From a virus (Duplodnaviria > Heunggongvirae > Uroviricota > Caudoviricetes), in IMG/VR virus record IMGVR_UViG_2684622543_000010: a stretch of DNA of 8,410 bases; one strand, 5' to 3'. Below the pieces are notes generated by a model that saw only the letters and a program-made list of their open reading frames with translations, was not told where the DNA came from and ran no database searches. Shown piece after piece: positions 1 through 8,410 of this stretch (positions are counted from its first letter, which is position 1; each line of letters starts with the position of its first letter). The translations under genes were made by a program, and so were the position numbers.

Positions 1-70
1 TCAATGATCGGAAGTATGCCAAATCGTGATCGATTGTGATGCCAAACTGTGATCGGAGATGGATGCCAAA

Positions 71-875
<805 letters not shown>

Positions 876-971
876 ATATATATGTATTTTCTCTGTTAAG
901 CGTGAGCTACGTGAAAAATAATTTTTGGTGTGGGTATTAACTTTGCTTTATTCACGTAGAACACCGTTAAA

Positions 972-3152
972 TCATTCTTCCTCTGGATAGCTTGAACTTA
1001 AGAGCATATCCTGCGTGAACTGGTCATTAGCTGATTGATTGAAAGTAAAGAAAGATGGTTCATCTGGTCGAACGACAACTTGACCACCAAGTGAAACTTT
1101 CACTGGCTCCTGAATACGCTTACTCAAAGCACTAATTTCATCCCTCAGACCCTGAATATCTGCACTCGTTAATGCTGAATCTTGCTTAATGTTGTTTAAC
1201 TCTGGATGATTGAATCTTGCAATATTCATTGTGGCATTGTTAAACAATTCACCCATTGAACTAAAAATTCTACTCCATCCTTCGTTAATCATATTCGGTT
1301 TATTAGGGTCACCAGAATACACGGGATTAAAGTCACTACCCACACCTACCCCAGACGGATGCATATTAGCGTTTTTGACTACTTCCTGATTCATAAAATC
1401 CAGTGCTTTCTTCAATGCATATAAACCAAGAGTGACGCCTCTGATTTGTGGAATCATTGAAGCTAATGCTAACGCTGTTTCATAACCGTCATCAGCATAA
1501 CCAATTGCAAGAGCACTACCTACACCACCAGCTACACCTTTCAGTTTTCCACCACCTTTACCAGTAGCTACCTGACCAGCCACCTGATTAGCTCTTGTAC
1601 CTAACGTTGTGATTGCTCTTGTCAGGTTCATAACCCCTGTAGTAGCACTGAATAGCGTCTTTGCAGATAACGCTATAGCAAGACCTTTGACGAAGTTGAT
1701 AAAACCATCACCGACTTCATCAAGTAGTTTTCGTTTAGTGTCATCAAGGCTGTAATAGAACTTCTTAGTCTGTAAAATCCAGCCTTCAATGGTGTTATTG
1801 AATACGCGAATATCATCTACACCAGCTTTAAGCATGTCGATAAGTCCACCGATAGCATCACCAGCGATAGAAGAACTCATCCCCATTTCACTAAGCAGGT
1901 TACTCAGGCTGGATAAGAAGCCGTTTAGCTCATCCTGTGAACCTGAGAAGATTTTCACCATCGTATCATCCCAATTGTTTGCTAACTTACCTAAAGCTGT
2001 CTGAGTGCTCTTAGTGACTTCAGCCCAGCCACCCGCTTTATCAATCATCAAGCCCATCTGTTTAGCGACTTTAGGGAGAGTATCAGCGGAAAGTACCTTC
2101 CCGTTTTTCATGGCTGCATCAAGCTCTGTAGCAGTCATACCCAATGCTTCAGCGAATAGCTTAAATGCACCAGCCATACGGTCACCTAACTGCCCACGTA
2201 ATTCCTCAGCCTGAATCTTGCCCTTGCTCGCCATCTGCTCAAATGCTCTCAAAATGCCGTTTAGCTCATCGTTAGAAAGCCCCATTAAGCGACTCATAGC
2301 CGTTGCATTACCAAATAGCTCCTGTGTCTGTTCCTGTGACATAGAACCCTGAGCACCTGCTGCAAACTTAGCGTAGCTTGATAGCCCTTCAGAGATATTA
2401 AGACCTGTCTTGTCTGCTAAATTTCGAATAAATACCTCAGCTTCAGATGCTTTATCACCAAGTACAAACTTAGCGGCTCTCTGTGCGGAATCTCGTTTAA
2501 GACCTGCATTCATAATGGCCTTGTAAGCGTTAAGAGCACCCATCACAGAGTAAAATGCACCAGATAATTTAATCGCATTGCTTGCAAGATTATTAAATGC
2601 GTCGCTTGTATTGTTAATGCTGGCGGTCTTTGTCTGTGACCTGAGTTTATTCAACGTTTCACGAAGAGATTGATTTAATTTTGCAAGTTCAGCGTTAAAC
2701 TTTTCACTTCCAATATTACCAGCCTTACCGCTTAAGCTGTAATACTGTGCTTTAAACATTTTAGCCATCAGCGGATTAATATCACCAAGCTTAGACATAT
2801 TCACGCTATGCGCTGCTGTGATTGCTCTGTTTCCGCTAATTCGTGGTTGCCTTGATTGTTTTGGAGGATTAACAGTGTCATTAAATCTGGTGGCAAACTG
2901 AAATGCTTTTGTGCTTCTTGCTCTCTGCTCAATCTTGTCAAAGGTCTTATTAAACTTCCTTTCAAGCTGCCCTAAAGAACTTGTCAGATTGCTGTCAAGT
3001 TGCTTGGTATCGACCTTAAACGCTCTATTCAAATTGCGTTCAATTCTTTGTGCTGACTGCAAAGCTGCCTTTTCAACTCTTTGCAAGCCCTTAATAACGT
3101 TTTCACTGAAACTAAGTTCAACGATAAAACTATCAACTGTGAATTTGCTCAT
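972..3152 (-). CDS. Phage tail tape measure protein (726 aa)
   Basis: Long ORF; SD AGAGGTG upstream of ATG at 3152. N-terminal coiled-coil-like region, central segment typical of the tape-measure domain (RLMGLSNDELNGILRAFEQMASKGKIQAEELRGQLGDRMAGAFKLFAEALGMTATELDAAMKNGKV), Ala/Gly/Leu-rich helical composition and a glycine-rich stretch (GKGGGKLKGVAGGVGSALAIGY). Family assignment from recalled motif patterns, not a search. Confidence 0.8.
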   Translation of the reverse strand: MSKFTVDSFIVELSFSENVIKGLQRVEKAALQSAQRIERNLNRAFKVDTKQLDSNLTSSLGQLERKFNKTFDKIEQRARSTKAFQFATRFNDTVNPPKQSRQPRISGNRAITAAHSVNMSKLGDINPLMAKMFKAQYYSLSGKAGNIGSEKFNAELAKLNQSLRETLNKLRSQTKTASINNTSDAFNNLASNAIKLSGAFYSVMGALNAYKAIMNAGLKRDSAQRAAKFVLGDKASEAEVFIRNLADKTGLNISEGLSSYAKFAAGAQGSMSQEQTQELFGNATAMSRLMGLSNDELNGILRAFEQMASKGKIQAEELRGQLGDRMAGAFKLFAEALGMTATELDAAMKNGKVLSADTLPKVAKQMGLMIDKAGGWAEVTKSTQTALGKLANNWDDTMVKIFSGSQDELNGFLSSLSNLLSEMGMSSSIAGDAIGGLIDMLKAGVDDIRVFNNTIEGWILQTKKFYYSLDDTKRKLLDEVGDGFINFVKGLAIALSAKTLFSATTGVMNLTRAITTLGTRANQVAGQVATGKGGGKLKGVAGGVGSALAIGYADDGYETALALASMIPQIRGVTLGLYALKKALDFMNQEVVKNANMHPSGVGVGSDFNPVYSGDPNKPNMINEGWSRIFSSMGELFNNATMNIARFNHPELNNIKQDSALTSADIQGLRDEISALSKRIQEPVKVSLGGQVVVRPDEPSFFTFNQSANDQFTQDMLLSSSYPEEE

Positions 3153-3250
3153 TCATGTTTCACCTCTTTAAGTGTTCATATACGAAAAAGGGAAAGACTA
3201 CCGATATCACTCGATAATCTCTCCCGTAGATTTTCACCCAACCAATCTTG

Positions 3251-3457
3251 TTACCTAACCAGATAATAATTACCATCTTCACCAACAATCTGACAATCAC
3301 TTGGTAATTTATCAAGACACCACTTAGCTATTTTCCTGATTCTATTCTTTTGCTTAGAGGAGGTGAATGATTTGATTCGTTTTGGTTTGTTGGGTTGTTC
3401 TTTCAATCGTTCACTAATTGCTTTAATAAGCTCATAGCGTTCTGTTAAATCAATCAT
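3251..3457 (-). CDS. Hypothetical small basic protein (68 aa)
   Basis: ORF with ATG at 3457 preceded by AAGGTGGTGGTG (SD-like); lysine/arginine-rich; immediately upstream of the tape measure gene. No recognisable family. Confidence 0.5.
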   Translation of the reverse strand: MIDLTERYELIKAISERLKEQPNKPKRIKSFTSSKQKNRIRKIAKWCLDKLPSDCQIVGEDGNYYLVR

Positions 3458-3481
3458 TCACCACCACCTTTTAATTATTAA

Positions 3482-4192
3482 TTAAATAGCCTTTGCATAT
3501 TTGCTAGAAATCTTCGTAAGCTGCTCAATATCAGCCTGCATAGCAATCTTCTTAGCATCTTCATATTCTTTCACAAGCTCTTTCATAGCCTGAAGCTCTC
3601 TTGAGAGATACAACTTAACATTATCAAGTTGCTTGTTACGTGATGCCAAGATGTTCTGTCTAGCAATTTCAGCGAGTTCTTCATCGCTCTTATTAGTCAT
3701 GTAAATAAACTGACCAGCACCTCTTGATGCCTTAACCATCTTCACAATTCGATGTCCAGCAGGAAGACTACTAATCACGGCTGCGACGTTTTCTTGAAAA
3801 GTACCAAAACCATCATTATCTTCGTATTGGTAATAGACAAATGGTTTCTGTGACAATTCATCCTGAATCTCAAATTCTGACGGCTCAATAGCTGATTGCA
3901 TCAAGGTAACTTTGCTGTAAGCGTCATCTAATCTAAGGCGCTGTTCTTTCAGCAGTTGGTAATATTTCTTTTCAAGCTCAAGTAATGCTTCACTCTTGCA
4001 AATATCAGGCATCTCTTGAGGCTCAGGAGACACAAAGATGGTTGTTTTTGGTGACATCTTTAGCGATTGCTCAAGCTCAATACGCTTGTCATGCTCTTTA
4101 CGCTGAATAGTGATAGCTGGATGTTCAGTCTGTGGCGACCAGTCACTGAAGCTATCAATCACTTTGCCATTAATGTAAATATCATTTGTCAT
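3482..4192 (-). CDS. Hypothetical protein (236 aa), predicted coiled-coil-rich
   Basis: ATG at 4192 (MTNDIYINGK...) preceded by AGAGGA 6 nt upstream. The track's longer form (start 4240) lacks an RBS and is rejected. No recognisable family. Confidence 0.6.
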   Translation of the reverse strand: MTNDIYINGKVIDSFSDWSPQTEHPAITIQRKEHDKRIELEQSLKMSPKTTIFVSPEPQEMPDICKSEALLELEKKYYQLLKEQRLRLDDAYSKVTLMQSAIEPSEFEIQDELSQKPFVYYQYEDNDGFGTFQENVAAVISSLPAGHRIVKMVKASRGAGQFIYMTNKSDEELAEIARQNILASRNKQLDNVKLYLSRELQAMKELVKEYEDAKKIAMQADIEQLTKISSKYAKAI

Positions 4193-4590
4193 TGCTTTTC
4201 CTCTTCTAAGCGGAAGTGTTTCAGTTTTTAAAAAGCACACCTGACAGCCTATCTAAACTTAGAAGAGACTTAAAAGGCGGTTTGCCAAGTATGCTTTTTA
4301 AAAGCTGAATAGCCCTAGATAATTTCTTATAAAGGGCCATTCATAAGGTGAAGAAATTAAAACATCTAAAGGATTCAAAAAGGATTCAAACGAATGAACA
4401 AGAGTACTTTTCGAGATGACCTCTCAGACTAACCTGAAAGGTCATGTAGCGAAAAGCATTGCACCTTTCAGAATAACTATCATTGATGTAGAATGATTAA
4501 TAGTTTAATTCAGGAAGAGTTGCTCTTCCCTATTACCATCATCTCATGCTTAAGGTTATTTGTCAACAGCTTTTTAACAGATTGGTAACA

Positions 4591-4668
4591 TCAATTCTTA
4601 TTTACCGTATTACCTACCCAGCAACCAACAAATAACCCTAAAGTCATCCAGAGAATAACGAGTGTCAT
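4591..4668 (-). CDS. Candidate 25-aa hydrophobic micro-protein (MTLVILWMTLGLFVGCWVGNTVNKN)
   Basis: Not in the ORF track (too short). ATG at 4666-4668 overlaps the TAA stop of the upstream gene (TAATG), with GAGGTG 5-6 nt upstream; stop TGA at 4591-4593. Sequence is almost entirely hydrophobic (one predicted transmembrane helix). Could be spurious. Confidence 0.3.
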   Translation of the reverse strand: MTLVILWMTLGLFVGCWVGNTVNKN

Positions 4669-4973
4669 TACATCACCTCGCTGTAAGGGTTTAATTCATT
4701 CTGATAGGTCAAGAATACATTCAGCTTCAATAATTGCTCAGGGCTTAAATCAAGTCGATTGCACTCTTCAATGATAAAGCGCTTATTGTATGGGTCTGTT
4801 ACTTCCAGCTTGTGAACATAGTCACCAAGTTTAATTTCGTTGATTATATGCTTGTCAATATACGTTGACGCTTCAAAACAATGCATGAAATAGATATTAA
4901 AGCCCGACCTGTTCAGGTCAATCAACCAATTCATGGTTTCTTGGTCAACCATAATTTGCATTGGGTAATTCAT
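4668..4973 (-). CDS. Hypothetical protein (101 aa)
   Basis: ATG at 4973 with AGGAAGG 9 nt upstream; last gene of the small-gene operon. No recognisable family. Confidence 0.6.
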   Translation of the reverse strand: MNYPMQIMVDQETMNWLIDLNRSGFNIYFMHCFEASTYIDKHIINEIKLGDYVHKLEVTDPYNKRFIIEECNRLDLSPEQLLKLNVFLTYQNELNPYSEVM

Positions 4974-5119
4974 TTTTAAAATCCTTCCTGTATCGCATTC
5001 TAAGACGTTTTAACCCCTTTTTTAGACCACTTAAGGCGATTCCCTAAGTTACCCTGATTAGGGGCTTAAAAACGTTTCTGGTGCGTCTGGTAAAGCCTGA
5101 GAGATATGTTTTGCTGTTT

Positions 5120-5335
5120 TTAGCTCAAGTCTGAGACTAATAGCCCCATCTGGTGACCGTAGTCTTTTAACCAGCTTTGCTTAACCGGAGTCTTCAGAGA
5201 ATAGTTAGGGGCTGACAAGTGAAGATAGATATCATCTTTGCCGTGGATACTTCCCCATCCTTCGTATAACTCAAGCAAGTTTTCAAAATAACGAAATGCT
5301 TTATTAGTCTGAAGTTGTACTGTGATAGTTTTCAT
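5120..5335 (-). CDS. Hypothetical protein (71 aa, start MKTITVQ)
   Basis: ATG at 5335 overlaps the TGA stop of the upstream ORF (TGATG), indicating translational coupling; the track's extension to 5347 is rejected. No recognisable family. Confidence 0.5.
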   Translation of the reverse strand: MKTITVQLQTNKAFRYFENLLELYEGWGSIHGKDDIYLHLSAPNYSLKTPVKQSWLKDYGHQMGLLVSDLS

Positions 5336-5556
5336 CAAGCACCCCATTCAGAAATAAGCTTAATTCCCTGCTCAAGCTGTTCAGGGTCGTTATAGTCGAG
5401 TATTACCAGTGGCTTTAATTCGTGTTTAAGCTGGTGGATTTGAGAGGGTTTTAATCGTTTGTTTGCTTTGAGGGTCACATCTTCAAATTCAGCATCTGCT
5501 AAATTCTGTCTGATTAGGTGGCGGCCAAGTGTGGAATATTGGAACCTATAACACAT
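5335..5556 (-). CDS. Hypothetical protein (73 aa)
   Basis: ATG at 5556 overlaps the TAA stop of the upstream ORF (TAATG), with GGAGG just upstream. No recognisable family. Confidence 0.55.
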   Translation of the reverse strand: MCYRFQYSTLGRHLIRQNLADAEFEDVTLKANKRLKPSQIHQLKHELKPLVILDYNDPEQLEQGIKLISEWGA

Positions 5557-5846
5557 TAAACCTCCAATCTATCCGCCAGTTGATGGACCTTAGCGCTTAA
5601 CACCTGAATCATTGAGCAACCTGCTACTGCGGACTGTGCTTTGAGTAGTTCCAGTTGGCCCGTTGTGATTCTGATGGCCTTAGAACCCTCTGCGACGCCC
5701 TTAACGTTATCGAAAGGGCTAAGGTTTACCGACTCTTTTAAAATCTCCCCAACAAGCGCTGTGTGCTTCATATCGGGATATTTGGCTTTGATTGCTGCCA
5801 GTCGTTCAAATGCCTCTGGCAAAAGGCGCGTAACTGTGTGAGTCAT
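5556..5846 (-). CDS. Candidate ribbon-helix-helix (CopG/Arc-like) DNA-binding protein, 96 aa; first gene of the small-gene operon
   Basis: ATG at 5846 (MTHTVTRLLPEAFERLAAIKAKY...) with GGAG 9 nt upstream; the track start at 5876 lacks an RBS. N-terminus has a beta-strand-then-helix pattern (TVTRLLPEAFERLAAI) typical of RHH regulators; a second similar segment follows (AIRITTGQLELLKAQ). Pattern-based inference only. Confidence 0.5.
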   Translation of the reverse strand: MTHTVTRLLPEAFERLAAIKAKYPDMKHTALVGEILKESVNLSPFDNVKGVAEGSKAIRITTGQLELLKAQSAVAGCSMIQVLSAKVHQLADRLEV

Positions 5847-5876
5847 TGTAAAAATCTCCTTAAATCTCTTACTCAT

Positions 5877-5983
5877 ACTACAATCTTAACATCTATTTAA
5901 CATATTGTCAGTACCTCATTTACATGATACTATGGTTGTAGGGGCTGATACAGGTGCTGTTTCCTTTCACAAAAGGAAAATTA
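5877..5983. promoter_or_regulatory. Divergent promoter region between the minus-strand small-gene operon and the plus-strand small ORF
   Basis: Plus strand: -35 TTGTCA (5905-5910), 17-bp spacer, extended -10 TGaTACTAT (5925-5933). Minus strand: possible -35 CTGACA (5912-5907), 18-bp spacer, -10 TAAGAT (5888-5883). Hexamers read by eye; no experimental support. Confidence 0.35.
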
Positions 5984-6160
5984 ATGCATGATTTTTTCAC
6001 AGCAATTATTGAATCTCATCGTTTTAGCTCGTTGGGCTTTGCGGTATTTATTGTGCTATTGGTGTTTTGCGTTATGAATCGAGTCATTACAAAAAAGACA
6101 AAGCTTACAATTCGACTTAAACTTCTTCGTGTTGAGATAGAGATTTCAGTAAATAAATAG
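5984..6160 (+). CDS. Small predicted single-pass membrane protein (58 aa from ATG; 68 aa if the in-frame GTG at 5954 is used)
   Basis: The only plausible plus-strand gene; sits in an otherwise uncovered gap. AAGGA 7 nt upstream of ATG 5984; promoter-like element at 5905-5933. Hydrophobic core (LGFAVFIVLLVFCVM) followed by a basic amphipathic tail (TKKTKLTIRLKLLRVEIEI). Ends 9 bp from the convergent minus-strand ORF. Confidence 0.4.
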   Translation: MHDFFTAIIESHRFSSLGFAVFIVLLVFCVMNRVITKKTKLTIRLKLLRVEIEISVNK

Positions 6161-6169
6161 CTGGTGGCC

Positions 6170-6466
6170 TTACCGGCACTTTCCCTTGATAATATTGGTG
6201 GCCCTCAGATTACCGGGGTCACCGTCTTTTAATCGTAGCTGGTGGACTGAATCCCATAAATCGTAATGATACAGCACCGCAAACTTCAAAGCGTCAATCT
6301 TTAAATCTGTCACATCATCGACGAAATAATAATCCCTCCCTTCTTTCTTCGGTCGAATCCGGTAAACTTCCCCGTGAGTATCTTTCATCAAGTAACCTTC
6401 ACGAGAAATGCTGTAACGTCTGAGTAAATAGTCACGGTATTTTCTCTCGCCATTATAAGTTTTCAT
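6170..6466 (-). CDS. Hypothetical protein (98 aa)
   Basis: ATG at 6466 overlaps the TAA stop of the upstream replication-initiator-like gene (TAATG), with GGAGG 9 nt upstream. No recognisable family. Confidence 0.6.
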   Translation of the reverse strand: MKTYNGERKYRDYLLRRYSISREGYLMKDTHGEVYRIRPKKEGRDYYFVDDVTDLKIDALKFAVLYHYDLWDSVHQLRLKDGDPGNLRATNIIKGKCR

Positions 6467-7221
6467 TAAAACATTCCTCCACCATAAACACGTCTGACTT
6501 TAACTTTTTCTTTCTTTGGCTCGGTGTGAGTTTTCTTTTTTGGTGTAAAAGTAAAATCATCGTCACTATCATCAAAGTCATCGAGGTCACTAACCTTGTT
6601 CTTTAGCTTCGCATTTCTGAATCTTTCTTTAATTTCTGCTTTACGCTGTTCACGTTTNNNNNNNNNNNNNNNNNNNNNNNNNNNNNNNNNNNNNNNNNNN
6701 NNNNNNNNNNNNNNNNNNNNNNNNNNNNNNNNNNNNNNNNNNNNNNNNNNNNNNNNNNNNNNNNNNNNNNNNNNNNNNNNNNNNNNNNNNNNNNNNNNNN
6801 NNNNNNNNNNNNNNNNNNNNNNNNNNNNNNNNNNNNNNNNNNNNNNNNNNNNNNNNNNNNNNNNNNNNNNNNNNNNNNNNNNNNNNNNNNNNNNNNNNNN
6901 NNNNNNNNNNNNNNNNNNNNGCTCTGTTAAAACCTCCGGTACTTCATCAAGTGAATAAACTTTAATAACACACTGATTGCTTGCAACGTTAGTTTTCTTG
7001 ATTAAACCATGTGCCTCAAGTTGTTTCATACATGCAATCACGGATGTTCTTGTGATTCCAGCATACTGACCAAGATGAGCATATGAAGGGGTATAATATT
7101 GCCCCTTATCGTGATAAAACTTTTGTTCATTCAACATGACAGTGTAAATAATACGGTCGGCAGCTTTAACGCCATTAGTCATCTGATAAATACGGTCATC
7201 AAACATGTGGAATTTTTCCAT
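6466..7221 (-). CDS. Replication-initiator / replisome-organizer-like winged-HTH protein (about 251 aa as given), interrupted by an N-run
   Basis: ATG at 7221 (MEKFHMFDDRIY...) with AAGGAA 7 nt upstream; the track's upstream extension is rejected. N-terminal ~100 aa has the helix-turn-helix pattern of phage O-type / DnaD-type initiators (RIIYTVMLNEQ...YYTPSYAHLGQYAGITRTSVIACMKQLEAHGLIKK). C-terminus is highly charged (KKK..., DLDDFDDSDDDF). The middle of the protein is unknown because of the N-run. Confidence 0.55.
   Translation of the reverse strand: MEKFHMFDDRIYQMTNGVKAADRIIYTVMLNEQKFYHDKGQYYTPSYAHLGQYAGITRTSVIACMKQLEAHGLIKKTNVASNQCVIKVYSLDEVPEVLTEXXXXXXXXXXXXXXXXXXXXXXXXXXXXXXXXXXXXXXXXXXXXXXXXXXXXXXXXXXXXXXXXXXXXXXXXXXXXXXXXXXXXXXXXKREQRKAEIKERFRNAKLKNKVSDLDDFDDSDDDFTFTPKKKTHTEPKKEKVKVRRVYGGGMF
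6658..6920. other. Run of 263 N (assembly gap or masked sequence) inside the replication-initiator-like CDS
   Basis: Seen directly. Flanking coding segments are in the same reading frame across the run as given, so the N-run may replace real sequence of about this length; its content cannot be assessed. Confidence 0.95.
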
Positions 7222-7603
7222 TATATTTTCCTTTTTAAAAATAAAACAAAGAAAGGGCTGACCACGTATAGTGACCAACCCCAGAGGGAGTGAATTAATT
7301 AGAAGATGGACTGATAAAGGAACTCAGAAGCCTGAGCGATTACGCGAGTATTAACAGCAAAAGGAAAAGCCTTGATTGAATAAGAGGCCGTGAAAATCTG
7401 TCAATACCCTGACGCCTCCCAACGTTGTAACCTCTTAATGTTCTGAGTTCTTTTATCACCCCATATAAAAACTATAACAGATGTGATTATAAATTGCAAC
7501 AATTATTTCACAGAATAATTACTGATTGGTCATTTATTGTTCACAGGGATACTTCTTAATATCTGAATCACCTATCTTGTAAATGACCATATTTATGAGA
7601 ATT

Positions 7604-8266
7604 TTAGCTCAACCTTTGAGCAATCCTGTATGACGTGCTCAGAGGCATTCTGAGAGCATCTGCAATGCACTTAATGGGTTTTCCTTGCCTGTATAGTTTT
7701 ATGAAGCTGTCGAGCGTCTCAGGTGGGTAAATGGTGGGTCTTCCTCTCAAGCCTCCTCTGTTAATGATGGTTAACGGTAATAGCGTGTCACCACAGCAAA
7801 CCGTCTGTGTAATTTCGTGCTTACGTGGTTCTTTTTTAAAAACAACGACTGCACTAGGAAACGGTGAACGAATAGTAAGCCCGTTATGGCCTGCTGGTGG
7901 AAGGTATTTAACTGCACGATGAAGAATACGGATTTCATGACAGTGGTTATTGCTGTAAATGTGCCTAAGCCAGTAGCTGGTGTTGGCTCTATGCGGTATC
8001 AGGAAAGCTACTAAATCCGCTTCAGACGCTTTTAAGAGGAACGACGGAATATCGCTGTACGGCAGGTTACAGAAGACCTTTTCACTAACCCATGATTGAC
8101 GGCTTATATCATTGGTGAATCGTGGTAACAGCGTGTCATGCTCAGTTGCAGCACCATCTAGCGTAAAACCAAATTCACGGTGTAAGTTCTTAAATAACAA
8201 CAATGGAGTTCTCCAGTAATCAGAACCCCCATGATGTTTCCCGATTAAAATATGCTCAATTGACAT
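7604..8266 (-). CDS. Phage Dam-family (T1/HP1-type) N6-adenine DNA methyltransferase homolog with a C-terminal resolvase-type helix-turn-helix extension (220 aa)
   Basis: Family hallmarks in order: DYWRTP, FTLDGAAT, a catalytic-motif position reading NLPYS (canonical is NPPYS), and SPFPSAVVVF. The C-terminal ~60 aa (RGGLRGRPTIYPPETLDSFIKLYRQGKPIKCIADALRMPLSTSYRIAQRLS) resembles the GRP-linker plus HTH of serine recombinases (Hin/resolvase type). No SD upstream of ATG 8266 (AT-rich leader). Motifs recalled from memory, not searched. Confidence 0.8.
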   Translation of the reverse strand: MSIEHILIGKHHGGSDYWRTPLLLFKNLHREFGFTLDGAATEHDTLLPRFTNDISRQSWVSEKVFCNLPYSDIPSFLLKASEADLVAFLIPHRANTSYWLRHIYSNNHCHEIRILHRAVKYLPPAGHNGLTIRSPFPSAVVVFKKEPRKHEITQTVCCGDTLLPLTIINRGGLRGRPTIYPPETLDSFIKLYRQGKPIKCIADALRMPLSTSYRIAQRLS

Positions 8267-8296
8267 AAGAAATAAAAAATTTTATTGCAATCACTC

Positions 8297-8323
8297 TTGA
8301 CAAGGTTTACTCTCTTTTAAGAT
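8297..8323 (+). promoter_or_regulatory. Candidate sigma70-type promoter reading rightward out of the window, overlapping the left arm of the inverted repeat
   Basis: Perfect -35 TTGACA (8297-8302), 15-bp spacer, -10 TAAGAT (8318-8323). The spacer is short, so this is weak evidence. Confidence 0.2.
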
Positions 8324-8389
8324 AAGAGATACTTAACAGGCTTTCTAAACGGATATCCTTTCTGGAATATCTATCTCTTATCTTAAAAG
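8314..8389. repeat. 18-bp perfect inverted repeat (CTTTTAAGATAAGAGATA / TATCTCTTATCTTAAAAG) with a 40-bp spacer containing the palindrome GGATATCC
   Basis: Seen directly: arms at 8314-8331 and 8372-8389 are exact reverse complements; spacer 8332-8371 contains GGATATCC (8351-8358) flanked by two CTTTCT copies. Lies 48-123 bp upstream of the methylase-HTH start codon. Confidence 0.85.
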
Positions 8390-8410
8390 TCTTTACAGAT
8401 ACTTTAAAGA

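Follow-up and report, generated by a model that had tools for sequence, protein, structure and literature searches.

We analyzed an 8,410-nucleotide (nt) stretch of DNA (IMG/VR record IMGVR_UViG_2684622543_000010; here, the window) that carries, on its minus strand at positions 7604 to 8266, a complete open reading frame (ORF) of 220 codons plus a stop. To judge from its sequence and a structural model, the product is a genuine two-domain protein in which a phage-type N6-adenine methyltransferase (MTase) core is joined to a resolvase-type DNA-binding domain with a helix-turn-helix (HTH). The MTase-HTH protein is real, uncharacterized, and already in the databases, where the exact sequence goes by the generic name "MULTISPECIES: DNA N-6-adenine-methyltransferase [Shigella]." Its gene sits at one end of ~12-kb integrative, satellite-like islands, not all of which carry it. 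The ORF is 100% identical to that of Shigella sonnei CP104423, as is the whole window except for an N run (6658 to 6920) and an IS1 polymorphism. The explanation that we consider best, with a probability of roughly 45%, is that the protein is an active methylase tethered through its HTH to the control DNA of the island, where it would serve as both a regulator and a local modifier.

The assignment of the N terminus to the Dam family, first made in an initial annotation of the letters alone, held up well. The core (amino acids [aa] 15 to 145; positions 7832 to 8224, minus strand) matched the Pfam "phage Dam" profile PF05869 over profile positions 9 to 145 of 169 with 54.6 bits, well above the gathering score of 28.1 (E = 1.4e-14). 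The N-terminal domain also matched the PHROG_111 "DNA methyltransferase" profile (E = 3.5e-23), and the PADLOC orphan-MTase model matched the protein (5e-13). The match to the NCBIfam equivalog TIGR01712 (phage_N6A_met) fell far below its cutoff (37 bits versus 97.05) and covered only aa 15 to 99. Two family motifs lie N-terminal of catalytic motif IV, namely, WRTP (W-x-T-P; aa 18 to 21) and LDGAA (aa 36 to 40); the latter is part of FTLDGAA (aa 34 to 40; 8147 to 8167, minus strand), whose D-x-A-A motif we take, from general knowledge of the family, to bind the cofactor S-adenosylmethionine, and whose D37, A39, and A40 are nearly invariant in alignments extending down to 34% identity. Motif IV itself reads N-L-P-Y (aa 67 to 70; 8057 to 8068, minus strand). 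Scored in this way, the core counts as a PF05869 member but not as a TIGR01712 equivalog, and this copy deviates from the strict motif IV.

The C terminus (aa 175 to 220; 7607 to 7744, minus strand) is predicted to form a serine-recombinase-type DNA-binding domain consisting of a G-R-P arm and a three-helix HTH. HTH_7 (PF02796) matched aa 175 to 215 with 21.9 bits against a gathering score of 23.8 (E = 1.9e-4), HTH_23 gave a comparably weak match, and PF02796 is among the precomputed Pfam hits of some relatives (P0064; weak in others). Since the HTH_7 match starts at profile position 1, it includes the G-R-P arm (aa 175 to 177). In serine recombinases, this arm precedes the DNA-binding helices and contacts the minor groove. 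An AlphaFold2 model built from a 17-sequence alignment (mean predicted local distance difference test [pLDDT] score, 75) placed a small Rossmann-type core ahead of a C-terminal three-helix bundle (helices 182 to 193, 198 to 205, and 209 to 219; pLDDT, 81 to 92), whereas a sequence search of the PDB returned nothing beyond a weak HTH match. The tail is thus likely a resolvase-type DNA-binding domain, by predicted structure and, borderline, by profile, as the initial annotation had proposed. Between the two domains, a linker (aa 146 to 174; 7745 to 7831, minus strand) carries a conserved CC(A/G)DT...INRGG motif that occurs in the HTH-bearing subfamily only, and the model predicts a beta-hairpin at residues 152 to 170 (strands 152 to 158 and 164 to 170).

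The fusion was present in every close homologue, and it proved to be as unusual for the Dam family as the initial annotation had suggested. All 120 close homologues listed align along 100% of the query; 118 of them have 220 aa, and the other two have 218 and 224 aa. In a scan of 1.84 billion cluster representatives at E ≤ 1e-3, only ~10 of 2,027 relatives (50%-identity clusters) reached the C-terminal region (P0121 to P0127, P0129, P0133, and P0148; 34 to 61% identity or fragments). A related MTase occurs in 865 phage records, Shiga toxin (Stx) phages among them, and none of the 865 covers 80% of the fusion protein. Among species-representative genomes, full-length relatives were found in "Ca. 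Pantoea borealis," Winslowiella iniecta, Erwinia typographi, and a Scandinavium metagenome-assembled genome, and every taxonomically placed member is from the Enterobacterales. Given these full-length close homologues, the ~10 clusters, and the lack of a full-length phage counterpart, the MTase-HTH fusion is evidently real, conserved, and rare, and it appears to define a small subfamily.

Residues of the linker and the HTH are retained across this subfamily. In the 17-sequence alignment, which extends down to 34% identity, D160, L165, G171, G175, D186, and R214 are invariant, and C158, T161, L163, R176, P177, Y180, P208, T211, and I215 are nearly so. When six gene copies were compared by the Nei-Gojobori method, the ratio of nonsynonymous to synonymous substitution rates (dN/dS) was lowest in the linker (0.09), followed by the HTH (0.19) and the MTase domain (0.28), and dN was 0.089 in the MTase domain versus 0.014 in the HTH. 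Both halves therefore appear to be under purifying selection, with the DNA-binding half being the more constrained. Several MTase codons (17, 22, 55 to 56, 78, 92 to 97, 131, and 140 to 145; window positions ~7830 to 8218) each encode three to five different residues among E. coli copies that are otherwise ~90% identical and nearly invariant in the HTH. dS was also lower in the HTH part (0.07) than in the MTase domain (0.32), which may point to mosaic recombination or to a constraint that acts on the nucleotides themselves near the 3' end of the gene. The HTH does not seem to have been derived recently from the neighboring small recombinase, since BLASTP against the DNA-binding domain of that protein yielded no detectable similarity (E = 0.73).

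The feature of motif IV that the initial annotation had singled out, a leucine in place of the first proline, was read correctly and then lost its meaning as a non-canonical design. The codons AAC CTG CCG TAC lie exactly at minus-strand positions 8068 to 8057, and they are indeed one C-to-T change from the canonical CCG: the closest E. coli copy reads AAC CCG CCG TAC, and codon 68 is CCG or CCA in five E. coli copies. Position 68, however, is proline in 118 of 118 full-length (220-aa) cluster representatives at 82 to 95% identity and leucine in none. Motif IV is NPP[YF] in all 120 close representatives listed (118 by pattern match, with NPPY/NPPF in the two others; P0001 also has NPPY). Among 150 representatives of 50%-identity clusters, nearly all have NPPY, NPPF, or NPPW, and none has NLPY; two contain an N-C-P-Y tetrapeptide and no NPP[YFW], as found by pattern match and not by alignment to motif IV.

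The leucine codon is confined to one organism and firmly established there. Six complete S. sonnei genomes are nucleotide identical, with CTG at codon 68, and the exact 220-aa NLPY protein was found on at least 999 contigs, whose named members are nearly all S. sonnei; it is also indexed in 3,022 blocks of an assembly collection, many complete genomes among them. An exact-pattern scan of GTDB species representatives for the NLPY protein gave no match, which we presume is because that set, with one genome per species, includes none for S. sonnei itself. Taken together, these comparisons indicate that NLPY is a C-to-T transition (P68L) that was fixed clonally and is private to S. sonnei, rather than a family trait. 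Aligning the homologues, a check suggested in the initial annotation, therefore upheld conservation for the HTH but not for NLPY. That the leucine could be a sequencing error is excluded by the six genomes and the contigs carrying it, and the broader suspicion that either NLPY or the HTH is an artifact, the latter through a chance profile match, can be regarded as refuted, even with an HTH_7 score below the gathering threshold and a masked N run in the window.

We next considered what the substitution might do to the enzyme. In M.TaqI-type enzymes, the first proline of motif IV acts through its backbone carbonyl, which a leucine keeps; a literature search on mutagenesis of this proline found nothing usable. 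N-L-P-Y is the catalytic motif of human DIMT1, and N-L-P-F is that of TFB1M (PMC10915109); rare NLPY variants, of unknown significance, also occur among the REBASE gold-standard MTases (bioRxiv 10.1101/2023.12.13.571470). Since NLPY is native to the KsgA/DIMT1 adenine methylases, the activity of the S. sonnei copy may survive. The pairwise dN/dS values between S. sonnei and E. coli copies (0.23 to 0.32) are not above those between E. coli copies, and the data suggest no selection for P68L.

Alternatively, the S. sonnei copy could be a dead or crippled relic of the genome decay typical of Shigella, one that does nothing or only binds DNA, a reading to which we give less than even odds. Besides the invariance of Pro68 in the 118 representatives, it can draw on further rare residues at positions that are otherwise conserved or restricted among them (L22 in 0, G159 in 1, and N52 in 3 of 118), on the degraded state of the S. 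sonnei island, and on a private mismatch in the central palindrome of the repeat upstream of the gene (see below). Yet the ORF is intact and identical in the six genomes and on the 999 or more contigs, its dN/dS relative to E. coli copies is not raised, N-L-P-Y functions in DIMT1/KsgA-type adenine methylases (PMC10915109), and two distant representatives have N-C-P-Y without NPP[YFW], on the pattern match noted above. The S. sonnei P68L allele offers a test, set up by nature, of whether DNA adenine methylases can do without the first proline of NPPY, as KsgA/Dim1 enzymes can.

The proposal that the protein is tethered to island control DNA draws on the non-coding sequence surrounding its gene. 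When six islands were aligned, ~200 bp upstream of the ATG and ~150 bp past the stop were almost invariant, whereas the coding sequence was ~10% divergent. The upstream control region starts at position 8267, extends to the window end at 8410, and runs ~200 bp beyond it. It contains an inverted repeat (8314 to 8389; arms at 8314 to 8331 and 8372 to 8389) that lies 47 nt upstream of the ATG and encloses a second, short palindrome. The repeat is present in six of six islands but, owing to a 5-bp insertion, is perfect in S. sonnei alone; the central palindrome, GATATCC-N6-GGATATC, is conversely perfect in E. coli and mismatched only in S. sonnei. No Rfam match for a structured RNA was found in the control region. 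Downstream of the gene, the nearly invariant 150-bp block (7454 to 7603, minus strand) contains a promoter-like site, TTGCAA-17-TATAGT with an extended TG, which precedes the next gene, encoding a DnaD-N-like/HTH protein; two direct CTGTGAA-AATAA repeats lie just upstream of this site.

As a binding motif for the HTH, AAGTATC, TTAAG, and TACAGAT were each rejected, being either not enriched beyond chance or too few to judge. A repeat array at window positions 1 to 120 was likewise set aside as a binding array, since it is the end of a multi-copy insertion sequence (IS) element. This end (positions 1 to 125), which is not part of the island, consists of tandem ~23-bp units with one GATC each; a single genome can have as many as 34 copies, both chromosomal and plasmid borne, and the end adjoins an IS21-family istA in S. 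sonnei.

The islands share a layout in which the MTase-HTH gene holds a fixed place. In E. coli OkiPb01716, the island lies between tonB and yciI and encodes, in order, a large serine recombinase (disrupted there by an IS), a "baseplate" protein, a tape-measure protein, several small ORFs, an HTH/DnaD-N-like protein, the MTase-HTH protein, and a divergent small serine recombinase. The same layout is found at wrbA/ymdF in S. sonnei and E. coli RM10809-3 and near cmoA/yecN in other strains. The position of the MTase-HTH gene is conserved in nine islands, adjoining the slot for a small site-specific recombinase with the other genes downstream on the same strand. Relatives at 34 to 61% identity occupy the same position, next to a small serine or tyrosine recombinase and with a large integrase in the island; their islands carry either a tape-measure and a Dit-like gene or a weakly capsid-E-like gene and one for a ~620-aa protein. 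In the most distant of these islands (34 to 35% identity), a 345-aa protein with a weak Phage_cap_E match (L012, 13802 to 14839; L017, 14988 to 16025) and the ~620-aa protein replace the tape-measure/baseplate pair. This variety suggests a wider island family with differing phage structural-gene homologues.

The module itself is not present in every island: among 5,426 complete E. coli genomes, a match to the tape-measure gene was found in 426 (~8%) and a match to the MTase in 141, about a third as many. The RM10809-3 island, intact in other respects, is missing both the MTase gene and the proximal repeat region, where ~345 bp stand instead. No restriction-modification (R-M) partner was detected, as there was neither a nuclease neighbor nor a PADLOC R-M match.

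Within the window, the DnaD-N-like/HTH gene, presumed to encode the replication initiator of the island, spans 6466 to 7278 (minus strand) and is split by the N run, which comprises 263 N in place of 461 bp in the S. sonnei reference. The tape-measure gene (TMP_3; 972 to 3152, minus strand) encodes a protein 33% identical to a Felix-O1-type tape measure over aa 1 to 498. The baseplate-type gene upstream of it (122 to 950) is broken into short ORFs in S. sonnei, and IS1 and IS21-family elements are inserted in the S. sonnei island.

The small-recombinase slot just past the window end (L002, 8916 to 9485; L001, 27088 to 27630; L093, 1914 to 2489; L094, 2079 to 2630) lies between the island end and the MTase control region and has flanks that are conserved on both sides, as if cassettes swap there. 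It holds any of three unrelated serine recombinases, one of them reversed, or is empty, and it holds a small tyrosine recombinase in distant relatives. Because the contents of the slot are non-homologous cassettes, with no inverted alignment and with some islands empty, we dropped a model in which the neighboring recombinase inverts a promoter switch.

These observations allowed us to weigh whether the protein might be an ordinary orphan anti-restriction methylase that modifies a short motif in the DNA of the island or of the cell and so shields it from restriction after transfer. On this view, the HTH would only strengthen DNA binding in general or make the enzyme more processive, as the C-terminal domain of CcrM does, and would have neither a site-specific nor a regulatory role. 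PADLOC and PHROG group the core with orphan and phage methylases, MTase-only relatives reside in the 865 phage records (Stx phages included), the module is optional among islands, as is usual for accessory anti-restriction genes, and changes accumulate faster in the MTase domain than in the HTH, at variable sites with multiple states, as would fit an arms-race gene. On the other hand, the added domain is a complete sequence-specific-type DNA-binding domain, with its GRP arm and HTH_7, and no generic basic tail; the HTH is the most conserved part of the protein and stands alongside nearly invariant flanking DNA; and the one island examined that lacks the MTase gene also lacks the proximal repeat region. 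We therefore consider this possibility rather unlikely.

The composition of the island points to a particular phage group. Window positions 122 to 8410 contain no GATC against 25 to 30 expected, the five GATC sites in positions 1 to 121 belonging to the IS end. The GATC-free zone coincides with the whole island, spanning 11.6 kb in OkiPb01716 (L001, 16577 to 28179) and 11.5 kb in S. sonnei (L002, 7659 to 19140). In RM10809-3, it covers 13.2 kb, starting upstream of the island at 2047, within the agp-wrbA flank, and ending shortly after ymdF at 15245, and it extends for at least 10.7 kb in the island of a 61%-identity relative (L013, 5895 to 16591). In contrast, GATC density is normal in the flanking chromosome and in the inserted IS elements, as it is in the distant Pantoea, Erwinia, and Scandinavium islands. 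The Felixounavirus phage garuso has no GATC in 85,798 bp. CCAGG, half of the Dcm site, is depleted in both the phage (3 versus 84 expected) and the island (2 versus 14 expected).

Both genes and non-coding DNA connect the island to the same phages. Where the "baseplate" gene is intact (with the tape-measure gene, L001, 17980 to 21105), its product has 75% identity to that of the phage gene after the tape measure, and window positions 356 to 791 have ~92% nucleotide identity to many Felix-O1-type phages. Next to the MTase gene, a 68-bp segment (8332 to 8399, plus strand) that spans one arm and the center of the inverted repeat matches the leader immediately ahead of garuso_96 with 84% identity. 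In the phage, a strong TTGACA-type promoter precedes this leader; in the island, the leader element and a matching TTGACAAGG box face away from the MTase gene, towards the small-recombinase slot. A further 200 to 280 bp upstream resemble a second non-coding phage region, and the homologous pieces continue past the window end (L002, 9645 to 10000; phage L097, 17723 to 17788 and 9941 to 10226). As a whole, the 400-bp control region matches un-annotated DNA in 254 Felix-O1-type phage records, usually at two places in each. The DNA flanking the MTase gene upstream thus appears to be derived from Felix-O1-type phages. No homologue of the MTase or of its HTH was found in phage garuso.

The island combines a large serine recombinase and a DnaD-N-like gene with non-coding DNA of the Felix-O1 type and homologues of tail genes, a content that could fit a phage satellite. 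Its appearance is that of a satellite, or of an island interfering with tails, that has not been described before and whose phage group is strictly lytic, and our literature search found nothing describing an island or satellite tied to Felix-O1-type phages.

With the protein, its flanking DNA, and its island in view, we infer what the enzyme may bind, regulate, and methylate as follows. The HTH would anchor the enzyme at specific sites in the nearly invariant non-coding DNA around its own gene. At those flanking sites, the protein would control the divergent island promoters, much like the autoregulating HTH of SsoII-type methylases, and the methylase would lay down N6-methyladenine, either locally or island-wide. 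A sequence-targeted methylase or epigenetic switch, as the initial annotation proposed, remains the best candidate idea. The specificity of M.EcoVT2Dam, a PF05869 enzyme, is GATC (PMC6602927). GATC specificity in the MTase-HTH protein would leave its own island and the putative helper phage without a target and would duplicate host Dam, which argues, short of proof, for another specificity or for one dictated by the HTH.

Several observations weigh against the tethered-methylase explanation. The HTH_7 match is sub-threshold in Pfam terms (21.9 versus 23.8 bits), and the module is optional, being replaced along with the proximal repeat region in RM10809-3. The phage-like promoter and leader point away from the MTase gene, upstream of which we found no clear sigma-70 promoter or Shine-Dalgarno sequence. 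The search for a binding site gave no supported candidate, as the short motifs AAGTATC and TTAAG were not statistically enriched, and the regions upstream of the gene in distant relatives are unrelated, leaving no covariation to trace between the HTH and the upstream repeats. Finally, if the enzyme were GATC specific after all, it would have no target in its island and would be redundant with Dam.

A different reading of the same neighborhood is that the methylase fold was repurposed throughout the family as a non-catalytic, ligand-sensing or DNA-binding transcription-factor module. The gene does lie beside a divergent control region, the usual place of a regulator in mobile elements, and no other obvious repressor was seen in the island. 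Motif IV and D-x-A-A are nonetheless invariant or nearly so in all relatives except this copy, which would be unexpected for a dead enzyme, and we regard family-wide repurposing as very improbable. The pure regulator that the initial annotation offered as its second option is similarly unlikely for the family, given the conserved catalytic and cofactor motifs and an MTase dN/dS of 0.28, but possible for the mutated S. sonnei copy.

A more ambitious version of the tethered-methylase idea, which we consider unlikely but worth stating, is that the MTase-HTH protein is the epigenetic or transcriptional control module of a family, not yet described, of satellites or of anti-phage islands making use of strictly lytic Felix-O1-type myoviruses. 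Such an island would copy the GATC-free, Dcm-site-poor composition and the non-coding control DNA of the phage, and the tethered methylase would mark or lock the control DNA or the helper genome, thereby timing the island promoters.

To our knowledge, no domain for target recognition is obvious in the minimal PF05869 methylases. If one of them is naturally fused to a DNA-binding domain of the sequence-specific, recombinase type, the product would be either a methylase with its own "DamID-like" tether or a methylase-regulator of a new class, and it would be useful for studying how orphan methylases gain specificity or regulatory roles. While the NLPY result lowers the interest of the finding, its setting in a GATC-free, Felix-O1-like island raises it, and the host island may matter more than the protein. 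The combination of a lytic phage's GATC avoidance, its control DNA, and homologues of its tail genes points to a satellite or defense relation to Felix-O1-type phages, which are widely used in typing and therapy.

Among known systems, the phage Dam enzymes of PF05869 (T1 Dam and M.EcoVT2Dam) have the same minimal core, with W-x-T-P, D-x-A-A, and N-P-P-Y/F in the same order, and are likewise orphan enzymes on mobile elements. The protein described here differs from them by its added C-terminal recombinase-type domain and, in this copy, by NLPY; moreover, M.EcoVT2Dam recognizes GATC, whereas the island is GATC-free. Small serine recombinases (gamma-delta/Tn3 resolvase, Sin, and Hin) have the HTH_7-type DNA-binding domain that the tail resembles, but their catalytic resolvase domain is absent here. 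The KsgA/Dim1/Erm rRNA adenine dimethyltransferases have N-L/I-P-Y natively, yet they form an unrelated family with an rRNA substrate, and the motif in the S. sonnei protein is a recent mutation of NPPY. Hia5-type non-specific methylases were rejected as relatives, since they belong to an EcoDam-like DPPY/FxGxG class and not to PF05869 (PMC3299994).

The island resembles phage satellites (PICI, P4-like, and PLE) in its small size, its integrase and replication-type gene, and its helper-like non-coding signals and tail genes, and it likewise shares the oligonucleotide avoidance of a specific phage group. It is unlike them in having a strictly lytic Felix-O1-type myovirus as its putative helper, a large serine recombinase as its integrase, and a tape measure and a baseplate-hub homologue as cargo.

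A further parallel in domain content is provided by the SsoII-type MTases (M.SsoII, M.Ecl18kI, and M.EcoRII), whose built-in HTH autoregulates an R-M operon. These enzymes likewise combine a methylase with an HTH, and their genes lie beside a divergent intergenic control region with an inverted repeat. They methylate cytosine at C5, however, carry their HTH at the N terminus, and work with a partner endonuclease, whereas the protein described here has an N6-adenine core, a C-terminal HTH_7, and no endonuclease nearby, and operator binding of the SsoII kind at the repeat 47 nt upstream of its gene would be an analogy only. Methylase-HTH fusions are thus already known, but in another methylase class, domain order, and context.

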